Of a DNA stretch of 16,693 nucleotides, positions 1 through 16,693 are shown piece by piece (the stretch's first letter is position 1; every line of letters starts with the position of its first letter). This DNA is from a virus. Lineage: Duplodnaviria; Heunggongvirae; Uroviricota; Caudoviricetes. The notes under the pieces were generated by a model that saw only the letters and a list, made by a program, of their open reading frames with translations, was not told the DNA's origin and did no database searches. The stretch is taken from the IMG/VR virus record IMGVR_UViG_2563366923_000005, one strand, 5' to 3'. Made by a program: the position numbers and the translations under genes.

Positions 1-309
1 TTAGTACTCAGGAAGGTTTTCTAAGTTATCCTTGGATGTACCATTAGGTCTAGTAGTAATGTAATCAGTACCGTTGACACGGTCCTTAACCACTTTTTGA
101 CCTTTCTTCCACTTACCGTCATCACCTTTGAAAATGGTGTAAAAGGTATAGCCGCTATCGATTTTATTCACTACCCACTGCCGTGTTTCTGATGTCCCTT
201 CTCCAACAGTATCGCCATTATCGACATGCACATACACATGGGTAATGTGAGTGTGTTTATCGTTATATCGGACTTTAGAAATAAGGTAATCAGCCCATTT
301 ATCAGTCAT
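1..309 (-). CDS. Small hypothetical protein, DUF3892-like by recollection; probable island cargo
   Basis: Complete 102-aa ORF (ATG at 307-309, TAA at 1-3). About 35% GC in a sampled 60 nt, versus GC-rich head genes. Contains an HITHV motif. Function unknown. Confidence 0.45.
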   Translation of the reverse strand: MTDKWADYLISKVRYNDKHTHITHVYVHVDNGDTVGEGTSETRQWVVNKIDSGYTFYTIFKGDDGKWKKGQKVVKDRVNGTDYITTRPNGTSKDNLENLPEY

Positions 310-6797: not shown

Positions 6798-7310
6798 ATG
6801 GACTTCGATTTTGATGATATGGCATACCCGGATATTTTTTTAATTTCCGGCGAGGAGTTTAAAGGAAGCCGGAACACAGGAAAAAATCAGGTAGATATCC
6901 CGTTTACTGACGAACCGCAAATTGAATTGGGCGATATTCTGATTCAGAAGATTGGAAGCCGTGAGTTAAGCCTTAAAGTTGTCGATCTTTCAATATCAAA
7001 GAATGGAACGCTGAACGTGGGTACAACGCATCCTCACTTACTGACGTTATCCGTAGAGAATCTTTCTTCCAACGCACACAGGACAGCAAAGAGTATGAAT
7101 ACTTTTAATATTGGCTCCGTCAGTGGTGAGCAAGTTCAAATAGGTGAAAGTAATCATATGCTGGTGAATATCAGTATTACTGAACTTGTCGAGAAAGTGG
7201 CTAACTCTGGCGATCCACAGGCTAAATCAATGTTGAAACAGTTACTGGAAAATAGCACCGTTGCCAGTATCGTTGGCGCTGGCGCTTCTGCGCTATTAGG
7301 TCTGCTTTAA
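6798..7310 (+). CDS. Hypothetical protein with C-terminal hydrophobic Gly/Ala-rich tail; accessory gene on the opposite strand
   Basis: 170-aa ORF with GGGGGA 4 nt before the ATG. C-terminus TVASIVGAGASALLGLL looks like a single tail anchor or glycine-zipper segment. About 43% GC in a sampled 60 nt. Only sizeable plus-strand gene inside the island besides the RHH gene. Confidence 0.6.
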   Translation: MDFDFDDMAYPDIFLISGEEFKGSRNTGKNQVDIPFTDEPQIELGDILIQKIGSRELSLKVVDLSISKNGTLNVGTTHPHLLTLSVENLSSNAHRTAKSMNTFNIGSVSGEQVQIGESNHMLVNISITELVEKVANSGDPQAKSMLKQLLENSTVASIVGAGASALLGLL

Positions 7311-11124: not shown

Positions 11125-11314
11125 TGAGCGCCCCCTTTTTATCCTGCTCCAGCATAAAGGTGGCAATATCGCCAGAAATATCACGGGCCAGATCGATGAG
11201 GTTATCCCTCTCGTGACCTGAAATTTCGCAGTCTGAAATCACCAGAAGCAACGTTGCCAACTGACAAGCGCGGGACGTGGCTTTTTCTCTGCCAAGAGTT
11301 TCAATGTCATACAT
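11117..11314 (-). CDS. Hypothetical small protein
   Basis: 65-aa ORF whose start overlaps the Icd-like gene's stop. Part of a chain of overlapping start/stop codons. Confidence 0.5.
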   Translation of the reverse strand: MYDIETLGREKATSRACQLATLLLVISDCEISGHERDNLIDLARDISGDIATFMLEQDKKGALNG

Positions 11315-11519
11315 GTCGCACCTCCAGCATCTGAAATGCGTGGAACGGCAGGCGGGCAGCGAAAATAAGAGTTACGCCGGGCATGGTGTCGCGGGCTTCC
11401 CGTTCACTGGATGCGTTGACGTAAATCACCAACGGTTTGGCGGTAGGGTAGCGCTCAGAGGCGGAGAGAAAACGCCATGTAAATTCAGGGCGAGTTTGGG
11501 TAGACTGATTGTCAGCCAT
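11307..11519 (-). CDS. Icd-like small protein (P4/P1 family, putative cell-division inhibitor homolog)
   Basis: 70 aa from ATG at 11517-11519 (MADNQSTQTRPEFTWRF...FAARLPFHAFQMLEVRHV) with GAGGT RBS. The FTW and FAARLP pattern matches Icd-like proteins of P4-like elements as I recall them. The 250-aa track ORF is a spurious upstream extension. Confidence 0.55.
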   Translation of the reverse strand: MADNQSTQTRPEFTWRFLSASERYPTAKPLVIYVNASSEREARDTMPGVTLIFAARLPFHAFQMLEVRHV

Positions 11520-11709
11520 AACTGTTACCTCACTTAACGGTTTGTGGTCAGAGGCCCGGTTAGTGTTCCTAGCACTACCGGGCTTCGCACTTGAAAGGTG
11601 TATGTCACCTTTAATATTCAAACTAGCCCAAAGTGAAATACACTTCAAGCCTTTTTCTTTTATTTTTTTTGCGTATACTGAAATACACCTAACATAAGGA
11701 GTTTCAGTA
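11520..11709. promoter_or_regulatory. Divergent promoter / operator region
   Basis: Bulged palindrome GCCCGGTTAGTG-N7-CACTACCGGGC (11554-11583); 7-bp inverted repeat AAAGGTG-N5-CACCTTT (11594-11612); direct repeat TGAAATACAC at 11634-11643 and 11679-11688, the second next to a TATACT -10-like hexamer (11674-11679); long T tract at 11651-11670. Confidence 0.45.
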
Positions 11710-11895
11710 ATGGCAACAGGTGCGAAGAATGCAAAGTCACAAATGACCACAGTTCGAATCCCCCATGATGTGATGGAAGATATCGAACTTTTTAAACATG
11801 AAGGTGAAAGTACCGCAGGGTTTCTTGTCACTGCTGCGAAAGGCGAAATCAAACGCCGCCAGCGCCAAAAGGCAAAAGAAGAGCCAAAATCCTGA
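11710..11895 (+). CDS. Small ribbon-helix-helix-like DNA-binding protein (putative island regulator)
   Basis: 61-aa ORF with AAGGAG 9 nt upstream. TTVRIPHDVMEDIELFKHEGESTAGFLVTAAKGEI fits a beta-strand plus two helices (RHH/Arc-like), followed by a basic tail. Divergent from the replication operon. Confidence 0.55.
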   Translation: MATGAKNAKSQMTTVRIPHDVMEDIELFKHEGESTAGFLVTAAKGEIKRRQRQKAKEEPKS

Positions 11896-11902
11896 ATAAA
11901 AT

Positions 11903-11925
11903 CAGCGGGCGCAGAATTGCGCTGG
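11903..11925. terminator. Weak hairpin downstream of the RHH gene
   Basis: GCGCA-GAAT-TGCGC stem-loop (alternative CAGCG/CGCTG pairing) 8 nt after the stop codon. The U-tract is poor, so terminator function is uncertain. Confidence 0.25.
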
Positions 11926-12018
11926 CTCATTCTTTGACCACCAGCATTAACCCTGGTATGCTTAATCTGTTTCGGTTTTTCGTAGTGACATTGGCAGCTC
12001 TGCAAAGTTGCCTTTGTT

Positions 12019-12798
12019 TTATTCAGCGTCAGCATTCGGCACCTCCGGCAATACGCCACCAGCGATCAGTTTCTTCGTTAACCACTGCTCCCCCTTCCCC
12101 GTCAGCATCGTTGTGAATGAGGCTCTTACTTCGCCATTCGTTTCATACGTTCCCTGGCGAACGGCAAAATAACCGCTATCGATATAACGCTGCATAGGCA
12201 GGTTGTGGCGCTGGCCACCGTTGATGAGAATCCCCTGTTGCCTCATCCAGCCGAATAATTTGAAGGGGCCAAGCCCTACGGCTTTGGCATAGTTGGAAAT
12301 GGAAATACCCTTGCTGATCTCCGCAACGCGATCAGCGAAATCAACTTTTGGCGCAGCGGCCACCAGCCGGTTTTCAAGTTCGCTTGCCTTTTCGGCCAGA
12401 TCAGCAGCAAGGCGCAGGGCTTCCGGTAACGTCTGGGGGATATTAGCGGCGGCTTTTGCCTGGCGTTCGCAGTTGATGAAGTAGCGGCGCACCTCCCGCC
12501 CTTTTTCGTTGCGCTCAACCATTGCCAGCTCTTTACCCATGTCGATGGTGATCAGGTAATCATGTGCAATTTGTTGGCGATATTTTGCGCTCCCCGAAAC
12601 GGGGGCGCTCAAATTTTCAACCACCGTAAAATCTACACCAGCAGTAAAACCATACTGGCTGATACGCCCCTTAATCCATGTGGTGAAATCACGCCCAACG
12701 CCGAGAAACTCATGGAGTTTTTTTGCACTGACCAGCGATACCGTCACGCCGCCAATATTTCCGGGGTTAACCGGAACCAACTCATTTAATTTTTGCAT
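12019..12798 (-). CDS. Phage antirepressor (AntA N-terminal domain + KilAC C-terminal domain)
   Basis: 259 aa from ATG at 12796-12798. HDYLITIDMGKELAMVERNEKGREVRRYFINCERQ matches the AntA signature; C-terminal NLPMQRYIDSGYFAVRQGTYETNGEVRASFTTMLTGKGEQWLTKKL matches the KilAC/ANT pattern. Confidence 0.85.
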   Translation of the reverse strand: MQKLNELVPVNPGNIGGVTVSLVSAKKLHEFLGVGRDFTTWIKGRISQYGFTAGVDFTVVENLSAPVSGSAKYRQQIAHDYLITIDMGKELAMVERNEKGREVRRYFINCERQAKAAANIPQTLPEALRLAADLAEKASELENRLVAAAPKVDFADRVAEISKGISISNYAKAVGLGPFKLFGWMRQQGILINGGQRHNLPMQRYIDSGYFAVRQGTYETNGEVRASFTTMLTGKGEQWLTKKLIAGGVLPEVPNADAE

Positions 12799-12808
12799 AG
12801 CGCCCCCC

Positions 12809-13093
12809 TTACGCGGATTTACGGTTGTAAGGGGTGTTGACGTTCTCAACAGCAGGTGGATTGCGAACCCACCAAAGAACATCTGACAGAAGCCATGCGC
12901 AACTATTACGGCCAAAGTGGCAGCGTGGCGGGAATTTACCTTCGTTCTCCATATACCAGCGGGTGGAACGGGAAAGGCTGGTTATTTCGAAGCATTCACT
13001 TTCACGAATACGGCGATCAAACTTAATGCCATATTCTGCGAGAATGGTGCGGCGTTGTTCTGGTGTTGGCGGGGTAAAACGAGTATTTGACAT
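12809..13093 (-). CDS. alpA: AlpA-family transcriptional regulator (excisionase-like)
   Basis: 94 aa; LSRSTRWYMENEGKFPP...GRNSCAWLLSDVLWW fits the AlpA HTH pattern. GGAGGA RBS. Immediately upstream of the antirepressor gene. Confidence 0.8.
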   Translation of the reverse strand: MSNTRFTPPTPEQRRTILAEYGIKFDRRIRESECFEITSLSRSTRWYMENEGKFPPRCHFGRNSCAWLLSDVLWWVRNPPAVENVNTPYNRKSA

Positions 13094-13187
13094 ACTTCCT
13101 CCACTTAACGCAATCAGAAGGAGCCTTTCCTGTCTGTTCTTGCGTTGTGGGGGAAGTATTTGTCTAAAGTAAATTAATAAAAATGGC

Positions 13188-13264
13188 TTCTAAAATTTAA
13201 AAAGGCGTGTTTAATTCTAAAAAGGGTAATCTAATGATTAGAACACCCTTTCTAACGTTTAGAA
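13188..13264. repeat. Cluster of TTCTAA / TTAGAA hexamers in the alpA upstream region
   Basis: TTCTAA at 13188, 13215 and 13250; TTAGAA at 13238 and 13259, including TTAGAA-CACCCT-TTCTAA-CGT-TTAGAA. AT-rich 180-bp intergenic region. Confidence 0.3.
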
Positions 13265-13274
13265 GCTACTACAA

Positions 13275-14216
13275 TTAAAACTTAAAGTGCCTACTAATGT
13301 ATGAGGTAATTGTGTCAACGCTCTTGACCGGGCATTGTCCGTCAGGAAATAAGTGCACTCTGTCGGAAAGTTCTCTGGCCCATGCTGAGAAATTGTAGCT
13401 CCCATCTTTTTTCAAGCACTTTTCATTGAAAATATCAGAATTTGTTTCTTTGAATTTTATTGCAGCACTTAAAATTAATAGTTCATTTCGTGCATGTTTT
13501 TCTTTTGCACTTTCTGAGCGTTTATTAATACTATTTTTTGAATCAGAGTCTAAATCAGGTCGTTCAATATCATTGAGCATTGGCAGCTTATCGAAATCAA
13601 GGCCGCTTTCCATAAGCCGTTTAATATCATAATTAGTAACCCATAAATCATCATACCCGGCTTCAAACTCATAAGGGTCGAAATTAAACCTCTTGCCATT
13701 AGCCTGATCGATAAAAGGTTGGGCTGGCAGAATCTGAATTACTGGAGTTTCACCGCCTGTGAGGCACGGGAAAAATCCGGGGAAAAAATCCTTCACAGGT
13801 AAAGATGACTCAAACTGATCGGGCATTACCCGCCACAGACCTAATGCAAAGCCATATCCGACAAGGAACCCTTTACTTTCTTGTTCCGTAAAGATGTCTG
13901 AACCAGATAATAGTTTATCAGGTTCAAAATAACGGCCATTAGTAAATTCAATAAAAGAGTGATTCGTTATCGCGCGGGTTTGCCCTGACATAGAATTAAA
14001 AGTACGAGGAAAATATAGTGATGAATACCAATCCTTTACATCATTAAAATCTTCACGAAGAAGGATTCGGCAGTGAAACCTTTTCAGCATCATGCTTATT
14101 TCGATTTTATTTTCAATAGCAAGGTTGATCAAATCTGACGGTTCAACCCCCAGAAATGATGCACCTCTGGACAATCTACAATATGAAAATGGAATCTTTA
14201 TTTCTTTTTCTGCCAT
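13275..14216 (-). CDS. Hypothetical protein, AT-rich cargo gene between int and alpA (candidate defence / accessory function)
   Basis: 313-aa ORF with GAGGG RBS. 27% GC in a sampled 60 nt, far below the head genes. No family recognised by eye. Contains YDDLWVTNYDIK, a D-x8-D-x-K arrangement weakly reminiscent of a PD-(D/E)xK core. Confidence 0.65.
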   Translation of the reverse strand: MAEKEIKIPFSYCRLSRGASFLGVEPSDLINLAIENKIEISMMLKRFHCRILLREDFNDVKDWYSSLYFPRTFNSMSGQTRAITNHSFIEFTNGRYFEPDKLLSGSDIFTEQESKGFLVGYGFALGLWRVMPDQFESSLPVKDFFPGFFPCLTGGETPVIQILPAQPFIDQANGKRFNFDPYEFEAGYDDLWVTNYDIKRLMESGLDFDKLPMLNDIERPDLDSDSKNSINKRSESAKEKHARNELLILSAAIKFKETNSDIFNEKCLKKDGSYNFSAWARELSDRVHLFPDGQCPVKSVDTITSYISRHFKF

Positions 14217-14308
14217 AACGCTACCCTCAACGCCCCTAATTAACTTGCGAGCCAGGCGGGTAGGGTTTCCCGCTTTTCGGTTGGCCGACCTAGACTCGCA
14301 AGACCAGT

Positions 14309-15535
14309 TTAATCTCTATTCGCTACAGTTAACAGAACCACATTTTGATGATTACCCGCAAGAAGTTCTAAGCGATCATACCACTTATTCAGCGCGTCCA
14401 GTTTTTCCGGCAGATACAGACTACGGTTATAAATCGCCATAACCCCTGGCATTGAGTGGCCCAGCAACTGTTCAACAACGTGCGGAGCTATACCCATATT
14501 ATTCATATGCGTTGCAAGCGTTCGCCGTAGATCATGCAATGTCCACGGTTCAGAATGCCCCAGTTTTTTATAAACACTACGGCCCCACTGGCTAACCGCT
14601 TCGCTATTCTTCACAACCCCAAGAAGGTAGCCGGATGATTTTGTTTCATCGTGGAGCATTTCAATAAATGAACGCATCGCCTCTGGAACTGGACGCACAA
14701 TCTTTTCACCGCCTTTACTATGCGCTTTTGGTACTGTCCACACCCACGCCTCCATATCCCATTCGGCCCACTCTGACAATCTGGCCTCCTGGGTGCGGCA
14801 ACCAAACAAAGTGGTGATCCTGAGTAAGTTTGTGTAGTAAGGCAGAAAAACATCGCCGGACGATATAGCAGCCCACAATCCCCCAACCTCTTTATCTTTC
14901 AATACCCGATCTTTTTTCGCCTGCTTTTTACCAACATCGGGAATACTCAAATCTTCAAGGGCGGTACTGACGGCGTAACGGCGAACGCGGCAGAATTTCA
15001 GAGCCTGCTTACACATCTGGAATACATAACCCGCAGCAACTGGCGTTTTCTTTTTCATTCTGTCGAAGCAGTCAAGCCAGTATCGGGTTTCGCAGTCAGC
15101 GAGCGCCATTTTCCCAATGTAAGGGTAAATATGTTTGCGTAGCTCCGCTTTGTGCCGCTCAACGTTCGCACGATTTTCTTCCGCATATTCGCGTATCCAG
15201 TATTCGATAGCTTCCTGCACCGTGACCGGTTTAAGCGTTTCCTGAGTAGTTAGCGCCAATTGGTGCTTTGGGTCTTTACCAGAGGCCAACCACTGACGAC
15301 ATTTATCACGCGAGGAACGGGCCTCTTTGAGACTCATATCAGGGTAGCGCCCCAGAGTCAGCCGATGCAGCTTCTGCCCGTCGAGTCGGTAAGTAAACAC
15401 CCAGCTAATGCCACCAGCTTTCGTTACCTTAGCACTCAACCCGGCACCATCAGCATAAAACTCAATCTTACTGGCCGGGATGCCATGTAATCCCTTTAAC
15501 TTCCTGTCGCTCAGTTTGTTAAGTTCGCCAGCCAT
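14309..15535 (-). CDS. int: Tyrosine site-specific integrase (P4-type)
   Basis: 408 aa; C-terminal catalytic region with WTLHDLRRTLATHM, LLGHS and AIYNRS (R, H-x-x-R, Y). Lies at the element terminus next to the chromosomal junction. Confidence 0.9.
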   Translation of the reverse strand: MAGELNKLSDRKLKGLHGIPASKIEFYADGAGLSAKVTKAGGISWVFTYRLDGQKLHRLTLGRYPDMSLKEARSSRDKCRQWLASGKDPKHQLALTTQETLKPVTVQEAIEYWIREYAEENRANVERHKAELRKHIYPYIGKMALADCETRYWLDCFDRMKKKTPVAAGYVFQMCKQALKFCRVRRYAVSTALEDLSIPDVGKKQAKKDRVLKDKEVGGLWAAISSGDVFLPYYTNLLRITTLFGCRTQEARLSEWAEWDMEAWVWTVPKAHSKGGEKIVRPVPEAMRSFIEMLHDETKSSGYLLGVVKNSEAVSQWGRSVYKKLGHSEPWTLHDLRRTLATHMNNMGIAPHVVEQLLGHSMPGVMAIYNRSLYLPEKLDALNKWYDRLELLAGNHQNVVLLTVANRD

Positions 15536-15557
15536 AGACCACCACCCAGCCCAAAGT

Positions 15558-15578
15558 GTTTATACAAATGTTTATACA
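15558..15578. repeat. Tandem direct repeat GTTTATACA x2 (possible integrase arm-type sites / int promoter region)
   Basis: GTTTATACA at 15558-15566 and 15570-15578 (12-bp period), 23 bp upstream of the int start codon, within AT-rich DNA between int and the junction. Confidence 0.3.
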
Positions 15579-15708
15579 GAATTGCTTGCATAATAGCATA
15601 AACAACAAAAAGCACTGGAACAATATACAGTCACAATTTCATATAACCAATTGATTTTAAATAAAATATAAAAACCACCCCAAAGCATGAAAACAGCTAA
15701 TCTGACAG

Positions 15709-15723
15709 TACGGCATGAACTAA
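15709..15723 (+). other. fis: Displaced 3' end of fis (last 4 codons + stop); probable att core / right junction
   Basis: TAC GGC ATG AAC TAA encodes Y-G-M-N-stop, the Fis C-terminus as I recall it. The frame is closed just upstream by TGA at 15703-15705. yhdJ starts 85 nt downstream. Confidence 0.5.
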
Positions 15724-15750
15724 TTCAGGTTAGCTAAATGCTTGATTAAA

Positions 15751-15786
15751 AAGGCGCTACTCGGCATGGGGAAGCGCCTTTTTTAT
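15751..15786. terminator. Bidirectional intrinsic terminator (probably the native fis operon terminator)
   Basis: AAGGCGCT / AGCGCCTT 8-bp stem (15751-15758 and 15773-15780) with a 14-nt loop, A-run upstream and a T-run of 6 downstream. Confidence 0.6.
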
Positions 15787-15808
15787 AGGTGTCACAAAGG
15801 GAGTGACC

Positions 15809-16693
15809 ATGAGAACAGGATGTGAACCGACCCGGTTTGGTAATGAAGCTAAGACCATTATTCACGGTGATGCCCTTGCCGAACTTAAAAAGCTACCTAC
15901 TGAAAGCGTCGATCTGATCTTTGCCGACCCACCGTATAACATCGGTAAAAATTTTGATGGTCTGATCGAAGCCTGGAAAGAAGATCTGTTTATCGACTGG
16001 CTGTTTGAAGTGATTGCAGAGTGCCACCGCGTTCTGAAAAAGCAGGGCAGCATGTACATTATGAACAGTACGGAAAACATGCCCTTTATCGATCTCCAGT
16101 GCCGCAAGCTTTTTACCATCAAAAGTCGCATCGTCTGGTCATATGACAGTTCTGGAGTACAGGCGAAAAAACACTACGGCTCCATGTACGAACCCATCCT
16201 GATGATGGTGAAAGACGCAAAGAACTACACATTCAACGGTGATGCTATTCTGGTAGAAGCCAAAACCGGATCGCAGCGCGCGTTGATCGATTATCGCAAA
16301 AATCCTCCACAGCCATACAATCATCAAAAAGTACCGGGTAACGTCTGGGATTTTCCGCGCGTGCGTTATTTAATGGATGAATATGAGAACCACCCGACGC
16401 AAAAACCGGAAGCCTTACTGAAACGCATTATTCTCGCCTCTTCCAACCCAGGCGATATCGTTCTCGACCCGTTTGCCGGTAGCTTTACTACCGGTGCCGT
16501 AGCCATCGCCAGCGGACGAAAATTCATTGGTATTGAGATCAACAGCGAGTACATCAAAATGGGGCTTCGACGGCTGGATGTCGCGTCGCATTACTCCGCG
16601 GAAGAACTGGCGAAAGTGAAAAAAAGAAAGACGGGCAACCGGTCAAAACGATGCCGGGTTAGCGAAGTTGACCCCGATCTCATTGCAAAGTAA
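15809..16693 (+). CDS. yhdJ: N6-adenine DNA methyltransferase YhdJ (chromosomal flank)
   Basis: 294 aa from ATG at 15809 with AAAGGGAG RBS. DPPY catalytic motif (FADPPYN) and AdoMet-binding LDPFAGSFTTG. Near-identical to E. coli YhdJ as I recall it. The track's GTG at 15803 is less likely. Confidence 0.8.
   Translation: MRTGCEPTRFGNEAKTIIHGDALAELKKLPTESVDLIFADPPYNIGKNFDGLIEAWKEDLFIDWLFEVIAECHRVLKKQGSMYIMNSTENMPFIDLQCRKLFTIKSRIVWSYDSSGVQAKKHYGSMYEPILMMVKDAKNYTFNGDAILVEAKTGSQRALIDYRKNPPQPYNHQKVPGNVWDFPRVRYLMDEYENHPTQKPEALLKRIILASSNPGDIVLDPFAGSFTTGAVAIASGRKFIGIEINSEYIKMGLRRLDVASHYSAEELAKVKKRKTGNRSKRCRVSEVDPDLIAK

Follow-up and report, generated by a model that had tools for sequence, protein, structure and literature searches.

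A candidate regulator-plus-operator cassette between the integrase and alpA genes of a capsid-forming phage satellite

The stretch of DNA analysed here, the 16,693-nucleotide IMG/VR virus record IMGVR_UViG_2563366923_000005 (Caudoviricetes; referred to below as the window), contains a capsid-forming phage-inducible chromosomal island (cf-PICI), and the subject of this work is the gene located between its integrase gene (int) and alpA, hereafter the slot gene, together with the repeated sites that follow it. A 100% identical copy of the island was found in Escherichia coli KFu015 between fis and yhdJ. The island matches the published definition of cf-PICIs (bioRxiv 10.1101/2022.09.08.507074), having int, alpA, primase, capsid, protease, portal, connector, HNH, TerS and TerL genes and being free of tail and lysis genes according to RefSeq, Pfam and PHROG. 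The RefSeq order in KFu015 is int, a hypothetical protein, an AlpA-type regulator, an AntA/KilAC antirepressor, YlcI/YnfO, an Icd-like protein and small open reading frames (ORFs), followed by DUF927 primase, major capsid protein, prohead protease, portal, connector, HNH, TerS, TerL and DUF3892; the slot ORF is the hypothetical protein of this series. The int, slot and alpA genes and the genes downstream of them lie on one strand throughout. The following elements of the locus are used in the argument:

14309..15535, minus strand: P4-type tyrosine integrase gene, located at the island end near yhdJ and opening the int-slot transcription unit
14233..14300, minus strand: int-alpA RNA motif (Rfam RF02996), three-stem, between the int stop and the slot-gene start, ending 17 nt before the ATG
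13275..14216, minus strand: slot gene, 313 aa from ATG to stop, coding for a modular protein
13161..14213, minus strand: exchangeable cassette, i.e. the slot ORF without its first codon, together with 114 bp of 3' flank that include O1-O3
13250..13264, no strand: candidate operator O1, perfect palindrome TTCTAA-ACG-TTAGAA, 11 nt past the stop codon
13229..13243, no strand: candidate operator O2, TTCTAA-TCA-TTAGAT, centre 21 bp from that of O1
13188..13202, no strand: candidate operator O3, TTTTAA-ATT-TTAGAA, centre 41 bp from that of O2
13092..13159, minus strand: alpA leader hairpin, part of the conserved backbone, with the 5' arm ATACTTCCCCCAC pairing with GTGGAGGAAGT, which holds the alpA Shine-Dalgarno sequence
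12809..13093, minus strand: alpA (Pfam Phage_AlpA, 2.3e-10; phrog_2790), the presumed regulatory target of the slot gene
within ORF 12019-12915: AntA/KilAC gene, downstream of alpA

The slot gene was found exactly where an earlier note on this DNA had placed it: the 313-aa ORF fills 13275-14216 completely on the minus strand and is flanked by the AlpA-family gene and by the P4-type int, whose product matched Arm-DNA-bind_3 (3e-19) and Phage_integrase (1e-16) of Pfam and phrog_1 and is annotated as a tyrosine recombinase in KFu015. The GC content of 27% given in that note proved to be a local value: the gene is AT-rich compared to its neighbours, with 38.1% GC over the whole ORF (33% at third codon positions) against 48.8% in int, 49.1% in alpA and 50.8% in the island, but a drop to 24-30% was seen only in 100-200-bp patches around 13380-13580. 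Strong purifying selection was evident from a ratio of nonsynonymous to synonymous substitution rates (dN/dS) of 0.083 in comparison with a Klebsiella homologue (79% aa identity), and the N-terminal 55 codons, with a dN/dS of 0.03, were the most conserved part of the protein.

The same note had regarded the gene as an orphan without a family, which did not hold. The protein matched phrog_7144, a PHROGs family of unknown function, in its entirety (E 2.4e-225; residues 1-313 aligned with all 313 profile positions), and the same profile was also matched by the divergent slot protein of E. coli U90 (1.1e-36). A word-indexed protein search with the slot protein recovered 15 clusters, while an exhaustive profile search of 1.84 billion representatives of 50%-identity clusters recovered 344 at E<=1e-3 and 67 at E<=1e-10. 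Hosts of the family include Klebsiella, Enterobacter, Pectobacterium, Serratia, Yersinia, Pantoea, Xenorhabdus, Salmonella and Aeromonas, and every name recovered was 'hypothetical', including the cluster names of ten distant representatives. In E. coli this very allele is uncommon, 3 out of 5426 complete genomes having full-length copies, and a scan of IMG/VR with the family alignment returned two close loci only; the metagenome locus scan was made with the alignment of the C-terminal domain. Searches in curated collections were negative: no Pfam family covered the window protein or any of 86 family members, NCBIfam gave zero matches for the slot protein, and nothing below E 0.1 was obtained from PDB sequences with the single sequence, the 86-member profile or the C-domain profile. 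Among the defence families of PADLOC-DB v2.0, none matched the window protein at E<=0.1, and nine other slot proteins gave only short matches at the level of a helix-turn-helix (HTH), AbiEi at 0.025 and mad1 at 0.036, considered as noise.

Essentially identical int-slot-alpA segments (98-99% nucleotide or aa identity) were present in E. coli, Pluralibacter gergoviae, Klebsiella pneumoniae and Enterobacter hormaechei (loci including L015 of P. gergoviae and L039, PQ569648.1), in agreement with reports of identical cf-PICIs crossing genera. A single match was obtained in the phage collection, Klebsiella phage P12620-1, a 106-kb record holding the same satellite segment with int, the slot gene, a 711-aa primase-sized gene, capsid, protease and portal, all coding sequences in the examined 24-kb stretch being annotated as 'hypothetical'; this record may be a chimeric or contaminated assembly. 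In a distant branch of the family, represented by a 274-aa protein of Yersinia wautersii (P0208), one cluster member, originating from a 1.4-kb contig, bore the name 'Arm DNA-binding domain-containing protein', which may be either an annotation artefact or a gene call across the int-slot junction. This naming agrees with the frequent overlap of the int and slot reading frames.

All the family members that were placed had a co-directional P4-type int immediately ahead of them and were followed by alpA, and this layout held across different attachment sites (fis/yhdJ, gcd and others) and replicases (DUF927, D5_N/DUF5906, AAA_25/RepA). The position was further surveyed in an ORF-independent, integrase-anchored census of 17 loci, with one genome per species. 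In each of the 17, int and alpA enclosed a single gene of the same direction, coding for 216-313 aa, the slot being never empty and never holding more than one gene, and by longest-ORF calling the start of the slot gene overlapped the int stop codon in up to 15 loci. The occupants were distributed as follows:

6 of 17 loci: slot-gene (phrog_7144) family
6 of 17 loci: phrog_30524 (about 217 aa)
3 of 17 loci: DUF6387
2 of 17 loci: other proteins

The slot thus holds at least four mutually unrelated gene families; with hhalign probabilities of 0.3% for DUF6387 and 0.2% for phrog_30524, neither was detectably homologous to the slot-gene family. The presence of one gene in all 17 loci, drawn from unrelated families, indicates that the slot is obligatory while its occupant is interchangeable. 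A direct case of such replacement was provided by E. coli 873.10 (locus L009): in its version of the island, inserted at the same site, a DUF6387 gene stands in place of exactly positions 13161-14213 of the window (blastn), with 96.8% identity down to 14214, 95.6% from 13160 onward and no homology between these points. The gene turnover that the earlier note had proposed to look for across related islands was therefore present. Several other int-alpA arrangements were encountered. YfjH of E. coli K-12 (318 aa), located between intA and alpA in CP4-57, was rejected as a relative, since its gene runs in the other direction and the protein is unrelated (hhalign probability 1%). A DUF6387 gene adjoins an AlpA-family gene in the Klebsiella ST258 island ICEKp258.2, which the source relates to EARL (ROD21-like) islands (PMC10763509), and the int-X-alpA arrangement may be general to P4-integrase islands, beyond PICIs. 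A metagenomic island with a 272-aa variant of the slot gene (locus L010) also contained, about 1.4 kb upstream of the integrase, a CRISPR array with eight CRISPR-DR4 repeats (RF01317; 143-590).

The part of the cassette beyond the stop codon carries three phased palindromes, O1-O3. Palindromes of the 15-bp form TTCTAAnnnTTAGAA, with up to two mismatches, occurred three times in the whole 16.7-kb window, all within 13188-13264, against 0.58 expected, and their spacings of 21 and 41 bp correspond to two and four helical turns. O3 becomes a perfect TTCTAAnnnTTAGAA in the Pectobacterium and Serratia homologues. Both position and spacing of the three sites were kept in type-A cassettes from E. coli, Pluralibacter, Klebsiella, Pectobacterium, Serratia and metagenomes, despite saturation of synonymous sites in the adjacent gene (dS >1.7), and for O1 the position was preserved in 14 loci of type A from at least five genera. 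The palindromes were absent from the 96%-identical island of E. coli 873.10 with the DUF6387 gene. They are not the sites of Int, AlpA or Ant, because these genes lie in flanks of about 96-97% nucleotide identity common to both islands, and the 873.10 island has no such palindromes; the AlpA proteins of the two islands matched each other with a phmmer E of 7.5e-66.

The kind of repeat found behind the gene followed the kind of C-domain encoded by it. The family is a mosaic, in which the N-domain is common to all members while the C-domain exists in at least four versions (types A-D) without obvious mutual similarity. Type A is accompanied by the TTCTAAnnnTTAGAA sites; type B by GAGTTAA-C-TTAACTC and CCAAGTTAnnnTAACTTGG (CCAAGTTA-GGT-TAACTTGG), 21 bp apart; type C by CGGAAATTCCG (CGGAA-A-TTCCG) and TTCCGGAA; and type D by tandem CCTCATTAAG units. 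Three Pectobacterium proteins with near-identical N- and middle domains and a C-domain of type B, C or D were each followed by the matching repeats. Conversely, proteins with a type-A C-domain and an N-domain only about 38-45% identical to that of the window (in short local matches) had type-A palindromes at the same offsets, and diverged type-A-like C-domains (about 45% identity) were followed by different repeats. In a metagenomic island, 94% identity to the window extended from the Ant gene through alpA and the intergenic region into the last 74 codons of the ORF, where homology ended, so that recombination at the domain boundary is visible in the DNA. These comparisons showed the gene and its 3' repeats to behave as one exchangeable unit, with the repeat type following the C-domain type. 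An integron-like attC cassette was rejected, since the 3' repeats lack a common core across types, only single cassettes occur and the integrase is of the P4 type, not IntI.

A comparable arrangement was seen with the unrelated phrog_30524 family (loci L017, L018, L020 and L023-L025), whose protein of about 217 aa ends in the HTH-like GLSKSTIYKKI and is separated from alpA by a spacer of 410-620 bp. In L017 (7872-8491) this spacer contained three consecutive iteron-like arrays of 10-bp tandem repeats, CATTCAACAG, AACGACACGT and CATCATTGTT, with 5-6 copies each, which would make it a parallel case of an unrelated family with the same logic.

The anatomy of the slot protein was deduced from AlphaFold2 (AF2) models, with a mean confidence score (pLDDT) of 66 and 70, and from conservation in a 35-sequence alignment, and comprises four parts:

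aa about 9-55: N-domain, probable Xis/MerR-like winged helix, pI 8.8
aa about 56-212: middle domain, acidic (pI 4.4) and beta-rich, with an F-x-x-G-L-W signature and the invariant F123, G126, W128 and D197
aa 213-236: linker, disordered
aa 237-313: C-domain, basic (pI 9.0), four helices

The N- and C-domains were modelled at pLDDT of about 80-86 and 88-91, respectively, and D197 opens a helix in the models. Besides the four residues of the middle domain, the alignment was invariant at M1, P9, R17, L22, D28, A33 and I38. The predicted fold of the N-domain bears a tentative resemblance to Pukovnik Xis, RdfS and an AlpA-family excisionase, and the Pfam profiles HTH_17, Phage_AlpA and MerR remained unmatched in the window protein and the 86 family members. 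The C-domain was considered as DNA-binding because of its helical content, its charge, its HTH-like end pattern and its co-variation with the sites. Its only approach to a named family was DUF3950 (PF13132), which scored 17.1 bits with the whole protein and 19.1 bits with the isolated C-domain against a gathering threshold of 25 bits; such sub-threshold matches were found in 5 of 20 C-domains. A tie of DUF3950 to the YlcI/YnfO gene of the island (11710-11895) was rejected, since the product of the latter had no Pfam match at E<=0.01.

Structured RNA elements were detected on either side of the cassette. Upstream, RF02996 was recognized over the full model (1-71) by cmscan with 63.6 bits against the gathering score of 35.8, while its fold alone was unexceptional (z -1.0). 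The motif was present in all 11 loci with an int-to-slot spacer of about 92 nt, whatever the slot gene, including the DUF6387 locus of E. coli 873.10, and was missing from loci in which the slot gene and the int stop overlap; it belongs to the conserved backbone and not to the cassette. Its candidate roles are a terminator or attenuator after int, the 5' untranslated region of the slot gene, or a small RNA. On the other side, the 181-nt spacer between the ORF and alpA folded far better than shuffled controls (-65.9 kcal/mol, z -8.7, for 13085-13285). It includes the nested hairpin of the alpA leader, in which the anti-Shine-Dalgarno arm CTTCCCCCAC (13147-13159) pairs with the alpA Shine-Dalgarno GTGGAGGAAG (inverted repeat I4, 92% complementary). 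Pairs of the inner stem were kept across the islands by compensatory changes (AU:4/GC:3), and an analogous CTCCAC...GTGGAGG pairing was found in most of the other loci examined. A -10-like CAAATA at 13157-13162 would start transcripts within the anti-Shine-Dalgarno arm, and alpA mRNAs initiated at such a promoter might be translatable, while read-through transcripts from int and the slot gene might not. As RF02996 and the alpA leader bracket the cassette, they may supply the homology for its exchange.

The best-supported reading of these results is that the slot gene belongs to an uncharacterised family of modular regulators forming an immunity-like cassette in front of alpA. Put in full, the protein would be a sequence-specific DNA-binding regulator encoded by an exchangeable cassette together with its own putative binding sites and acting on alpA, for which a probability of about 45% was estimated. 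The narrower statement, that it is a site-specific DNA-binding regulator using O1-O3, can be made with somewhat better than even confidence from the sequence comparisons. In the proposed mechanism, the protein would be made from the int transcript in the resting island and bind O1-O3 via the C-domain, probably as a dimer or higher oligomer, with oligomerisation probably mediated by the acidic middle domain. The bound protein would control transcription into or from the alpA promoter region, while the terminator-like hairpin at O2 and the leader sequestering the Shine-Dalgarno sequence would stop read-through transcripts from yielding AlpA, so that AlpA-driven excision, replication and packaging of the satellite would be gated by the slot protein. 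By analogy with Stl and the lambdoid immunity regions, repression or insulation would be the likelier mode of action; a repressor gating induction was given odds clearly worse than even. Activation was kept as a possibility because O3 lies about 35-45 bp upstream of the -10-like CAAATA, the promoter position itself being a prediction. The acidic middle domain is a candidate sensor of a helper-phage product, as in Stl of the Staphylococcus aureus pathogenicity islands (SaPIs), and helper sensing by this domain would account for the diversification and for the AT-rich, recombining character of the cassette. Extended to the whole group, the int-alpA slot might encode the Stl analogue of Gram-negative PICIs and cf-PICIs, silencing alpA via cassette-specific operators and being released by a helper protein bound to the middle domain, albeit this analogy is tentative and should be regarded as doubtful at present.

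Several points speak against the regulator-plus-operator interpretation. The most important reservation concerns linkage: the codons of the C-domain directly adjoin the sites, and this physical proximity alone could produce the co-variation. O2 lies inside a terminator-like hairpin (arms at about 13218-13235 and 13237-13254) followed by a T-run, and termination may account for a part of the palindromy. Behind the DUF6387 slot genes the spacers are short and without an obvious repeat array, and the model of a regulator with its sites may fail for some slot families. A scan of 12700-15900 for sigma-70 promoter and terminator consensus gave results that did not rise above chance and left the alpA promoter unplaced. 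Moreover, the layout is co-directional, unlike that in Gram-positive PICIs where stl and the lytic operon diverge, the middle domain was modelled at a pLDDT of only about 60-75, and the C-domain had no detectable homology to any solved or curated HTH.

The most serious competitor is a cargo gene for anti-phage defence or abortive infection, as suggested in the earlier note, i.e. a single-gene effector sensing infection and blocking phage growth, whose DNA-binding domains would serve sensing or autoregulation. The cassette-like turnover between near-identical backbones, the several unrelated families in the same slot, the rarity and AT-richness of the gene and the carriage of defence genes by satellites (PMC10085698) are all compatible with it. 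Of this proposal the turnover slot stood, but the protein looks like a regulator with its own sites: neither this nor the other slot proteins matched the PADLOC models, neither sequence nor fold comparisons revealed an enzymatic, pore-forming or NTPase domain, a single co-directional gene fills the slot in each of the 17 loci, unlike typical defence hotspots, and the repeated sites are located past the gene on its alpA side and not at its own promoter. Defence is thus considered unlikely; if the gene does belong to defence, it would represent a new system consisting of one gene, in a satellite hotspot that has not been listed before.

The putative resemblance of the N-domain to excisionases and recombination directionality factors leads to another explanation, in which the protein is an accessory factor of the integrase, architectural or controlling directionality, co-translated with Int and shaping its reactions by the Xis-like N-domain. 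The tight linkage to int, with the start codon overlapping the int stop in many loci, and the position of the strongest conservation in this domain agree with such a role. However, Int does not need this particular protein, because the same Int occurs in islands with an unrelated slot gene; the cassette repeats do not lie in an att arm, the att end of the island being some 2.3 kb away; and AlpA is already required for excision in related PICIs (PMC6092414, PMC11773190). This role was accordingly rated as distinctly improbable. Slightly lower still are the chances of a factor directed at the helper and interfering with it, the repeats beside the gene then being decoys or copies used in autoregulation. 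An architecture of DNA-binding modules, in which the specificity domain is swapped rapidly, would suit this function, and satellite regulators acting on helpers are known (CapR, as cited in PMC10111431), but the fixed position and phasing of the sites before alpA in every type favour a local target. Finally, the proposal of the earlier note that the D-x8-D-x-K spacing of the peptide YDDLWVTNYDIK, present at aa 188-199, might be the catalytic core of a degenerate PD-(D/E)xK nuclease is largely refuted, since among its residues only D197 is invariant in the family, with K, R, E, L or V at position 199 and D, A, G, N or S at position 190 in the 35 sequences, and neither a restriction-endonuclease-like alpha-beta-beta-beta-alpha-beta core nor any other nuclease fold was matched.

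If the slot protein is a regulator with its own operators, its closest functional parallel would be Stl (Rpr) of the SaPIs and other Gram-positive PICIs. The slot gene likewise stands beside int, between it and the genes starting the cycle; like stl it would be expressed in the quiescent island, as presumed from its linkage to int; its family is also highly divergent and modular between islands, with a DNA-binding and a variable part; and candidate operators occur at the boundary with the lytic regulator, here as phased palindromes between the gene and the alpA leader. In contrast to these similarities, homology to Stl is absent at the sequence level and undetectable at that of the fold, the gene points in the same direction as the downstream operon instead of diverging from it, and regulation would presumably be exerted on the promoter or leader of the activator gene alpA, with helper-protein binding being entirely hypothetical here. 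With the lambdoid immunity regions the cassette shares the joint swapping of gene and sites between near-identical genomes, the coexistence of several specificity types and the multiple phased palindromes, while it differs in a protein unrelated to the repressors of the CI/Cro type (HTH_3), in sites placed downstream of the gene and in the shuffling of N/middle modules against C-domain-plus-site modules. Compared to the winged-helix proteins Xis, AlpA/Vis, RdfS and BldC, the slot protein is 3-5 times longer, with two further domains; it also differs from the Xis/AlpA/MerR-like proteins in lacking matches to their Pfam profiles and in being followed by a separate AlpA gene.

The 'Bro network' of PICIs with Bro-N/KilAC domains (PMC10111431) similarly consists of domain-shuffling DNA-interactive proteins in a dynamic zone, some of which, such as CapR, repress. 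However, the Bro zone is located downstream of alpA, while the slot family is upstream, in the integration zone of that paper, and has no Bro-N, AntA or KilAC domain. The int-alpA RNA, a copy of which stands directly upstream of the slot gene, is named after the same int...alpA neighbourhood but is a backbone element independent of the slot gene and is classified by Rfam as a small RNA. In the literature searched, no discussion of a gene between int and alpA was found. The survey of PICIs at the fis site named only Int, HTH_17 and Phage_AlpA proteins in the integration zone, without mention of an int-alpA gene (PMC10111431), and the numbering of EcCIMP1 genes in a further report (int as 001, alpA as 003) implies a gene at the same place (PMC11773190).

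Apart from the slot gene, several small genes of the island deserve mention. A 170-aa ORF of 42% GC on the opposite strand (6798-7310, plus), between the primase and capsid genes, gave zero matches in the PADLOC and NCBIfam scans, the two collections used for it (Pfam and PHROGs were not run), and was found at the same place and in the same orientation in cf-PICIs of Klebsiella (L002, 16231-16743) and Yersinia (L006, 16567-17079), making it the second conserved unknown of the island. At the fis-proximal end, a gene annotated as DUF3892 follows terL (window 1-309, minus, and 310-460; 39.8% GC), and this low-GC terminal gene could be accessory cargo. The mechanically called 250-aa ORF at 11307-12059 (minus) is probably not real: its Icd-like cell-division-inhibitor domain is confined to the last 50 or so residues (NF033153, 4e-16), RefSeq calls a 70-aa Icd-like gene there, and the YlcI/YnfO gene (11710-11895, plus) overlaps the long ORF on the other strand.

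The induction of Gram-negative PICIs depends on a helper phage switching on alpA, whose product is the activator of their cycle; it was stated to be unclear whether a global repressor exists in these islands, and the helper signal turning on alpA was reported as unidentified (PMC6092414). The slot family is a candidate for the switch that controls the induction of Gram-negative phage satellites. If the slot families do form a DNA-binding switch before alpA, the induction question would become directly testable with a protein, three 15-bp sites and natural specificity variants. Modules of a C-domain plus operators, together with the unrelated slot families with repeat arrays, would then represent immunity or induction-specificity groups, which would decide on the pairs of helper and satellite in induction and let tandem satellites coexist without cross-talk. 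This would explain the specificity between satellites and their helpers and would offer orthogonal repressor-operator pairs for engineered PICI delivery vehicles.

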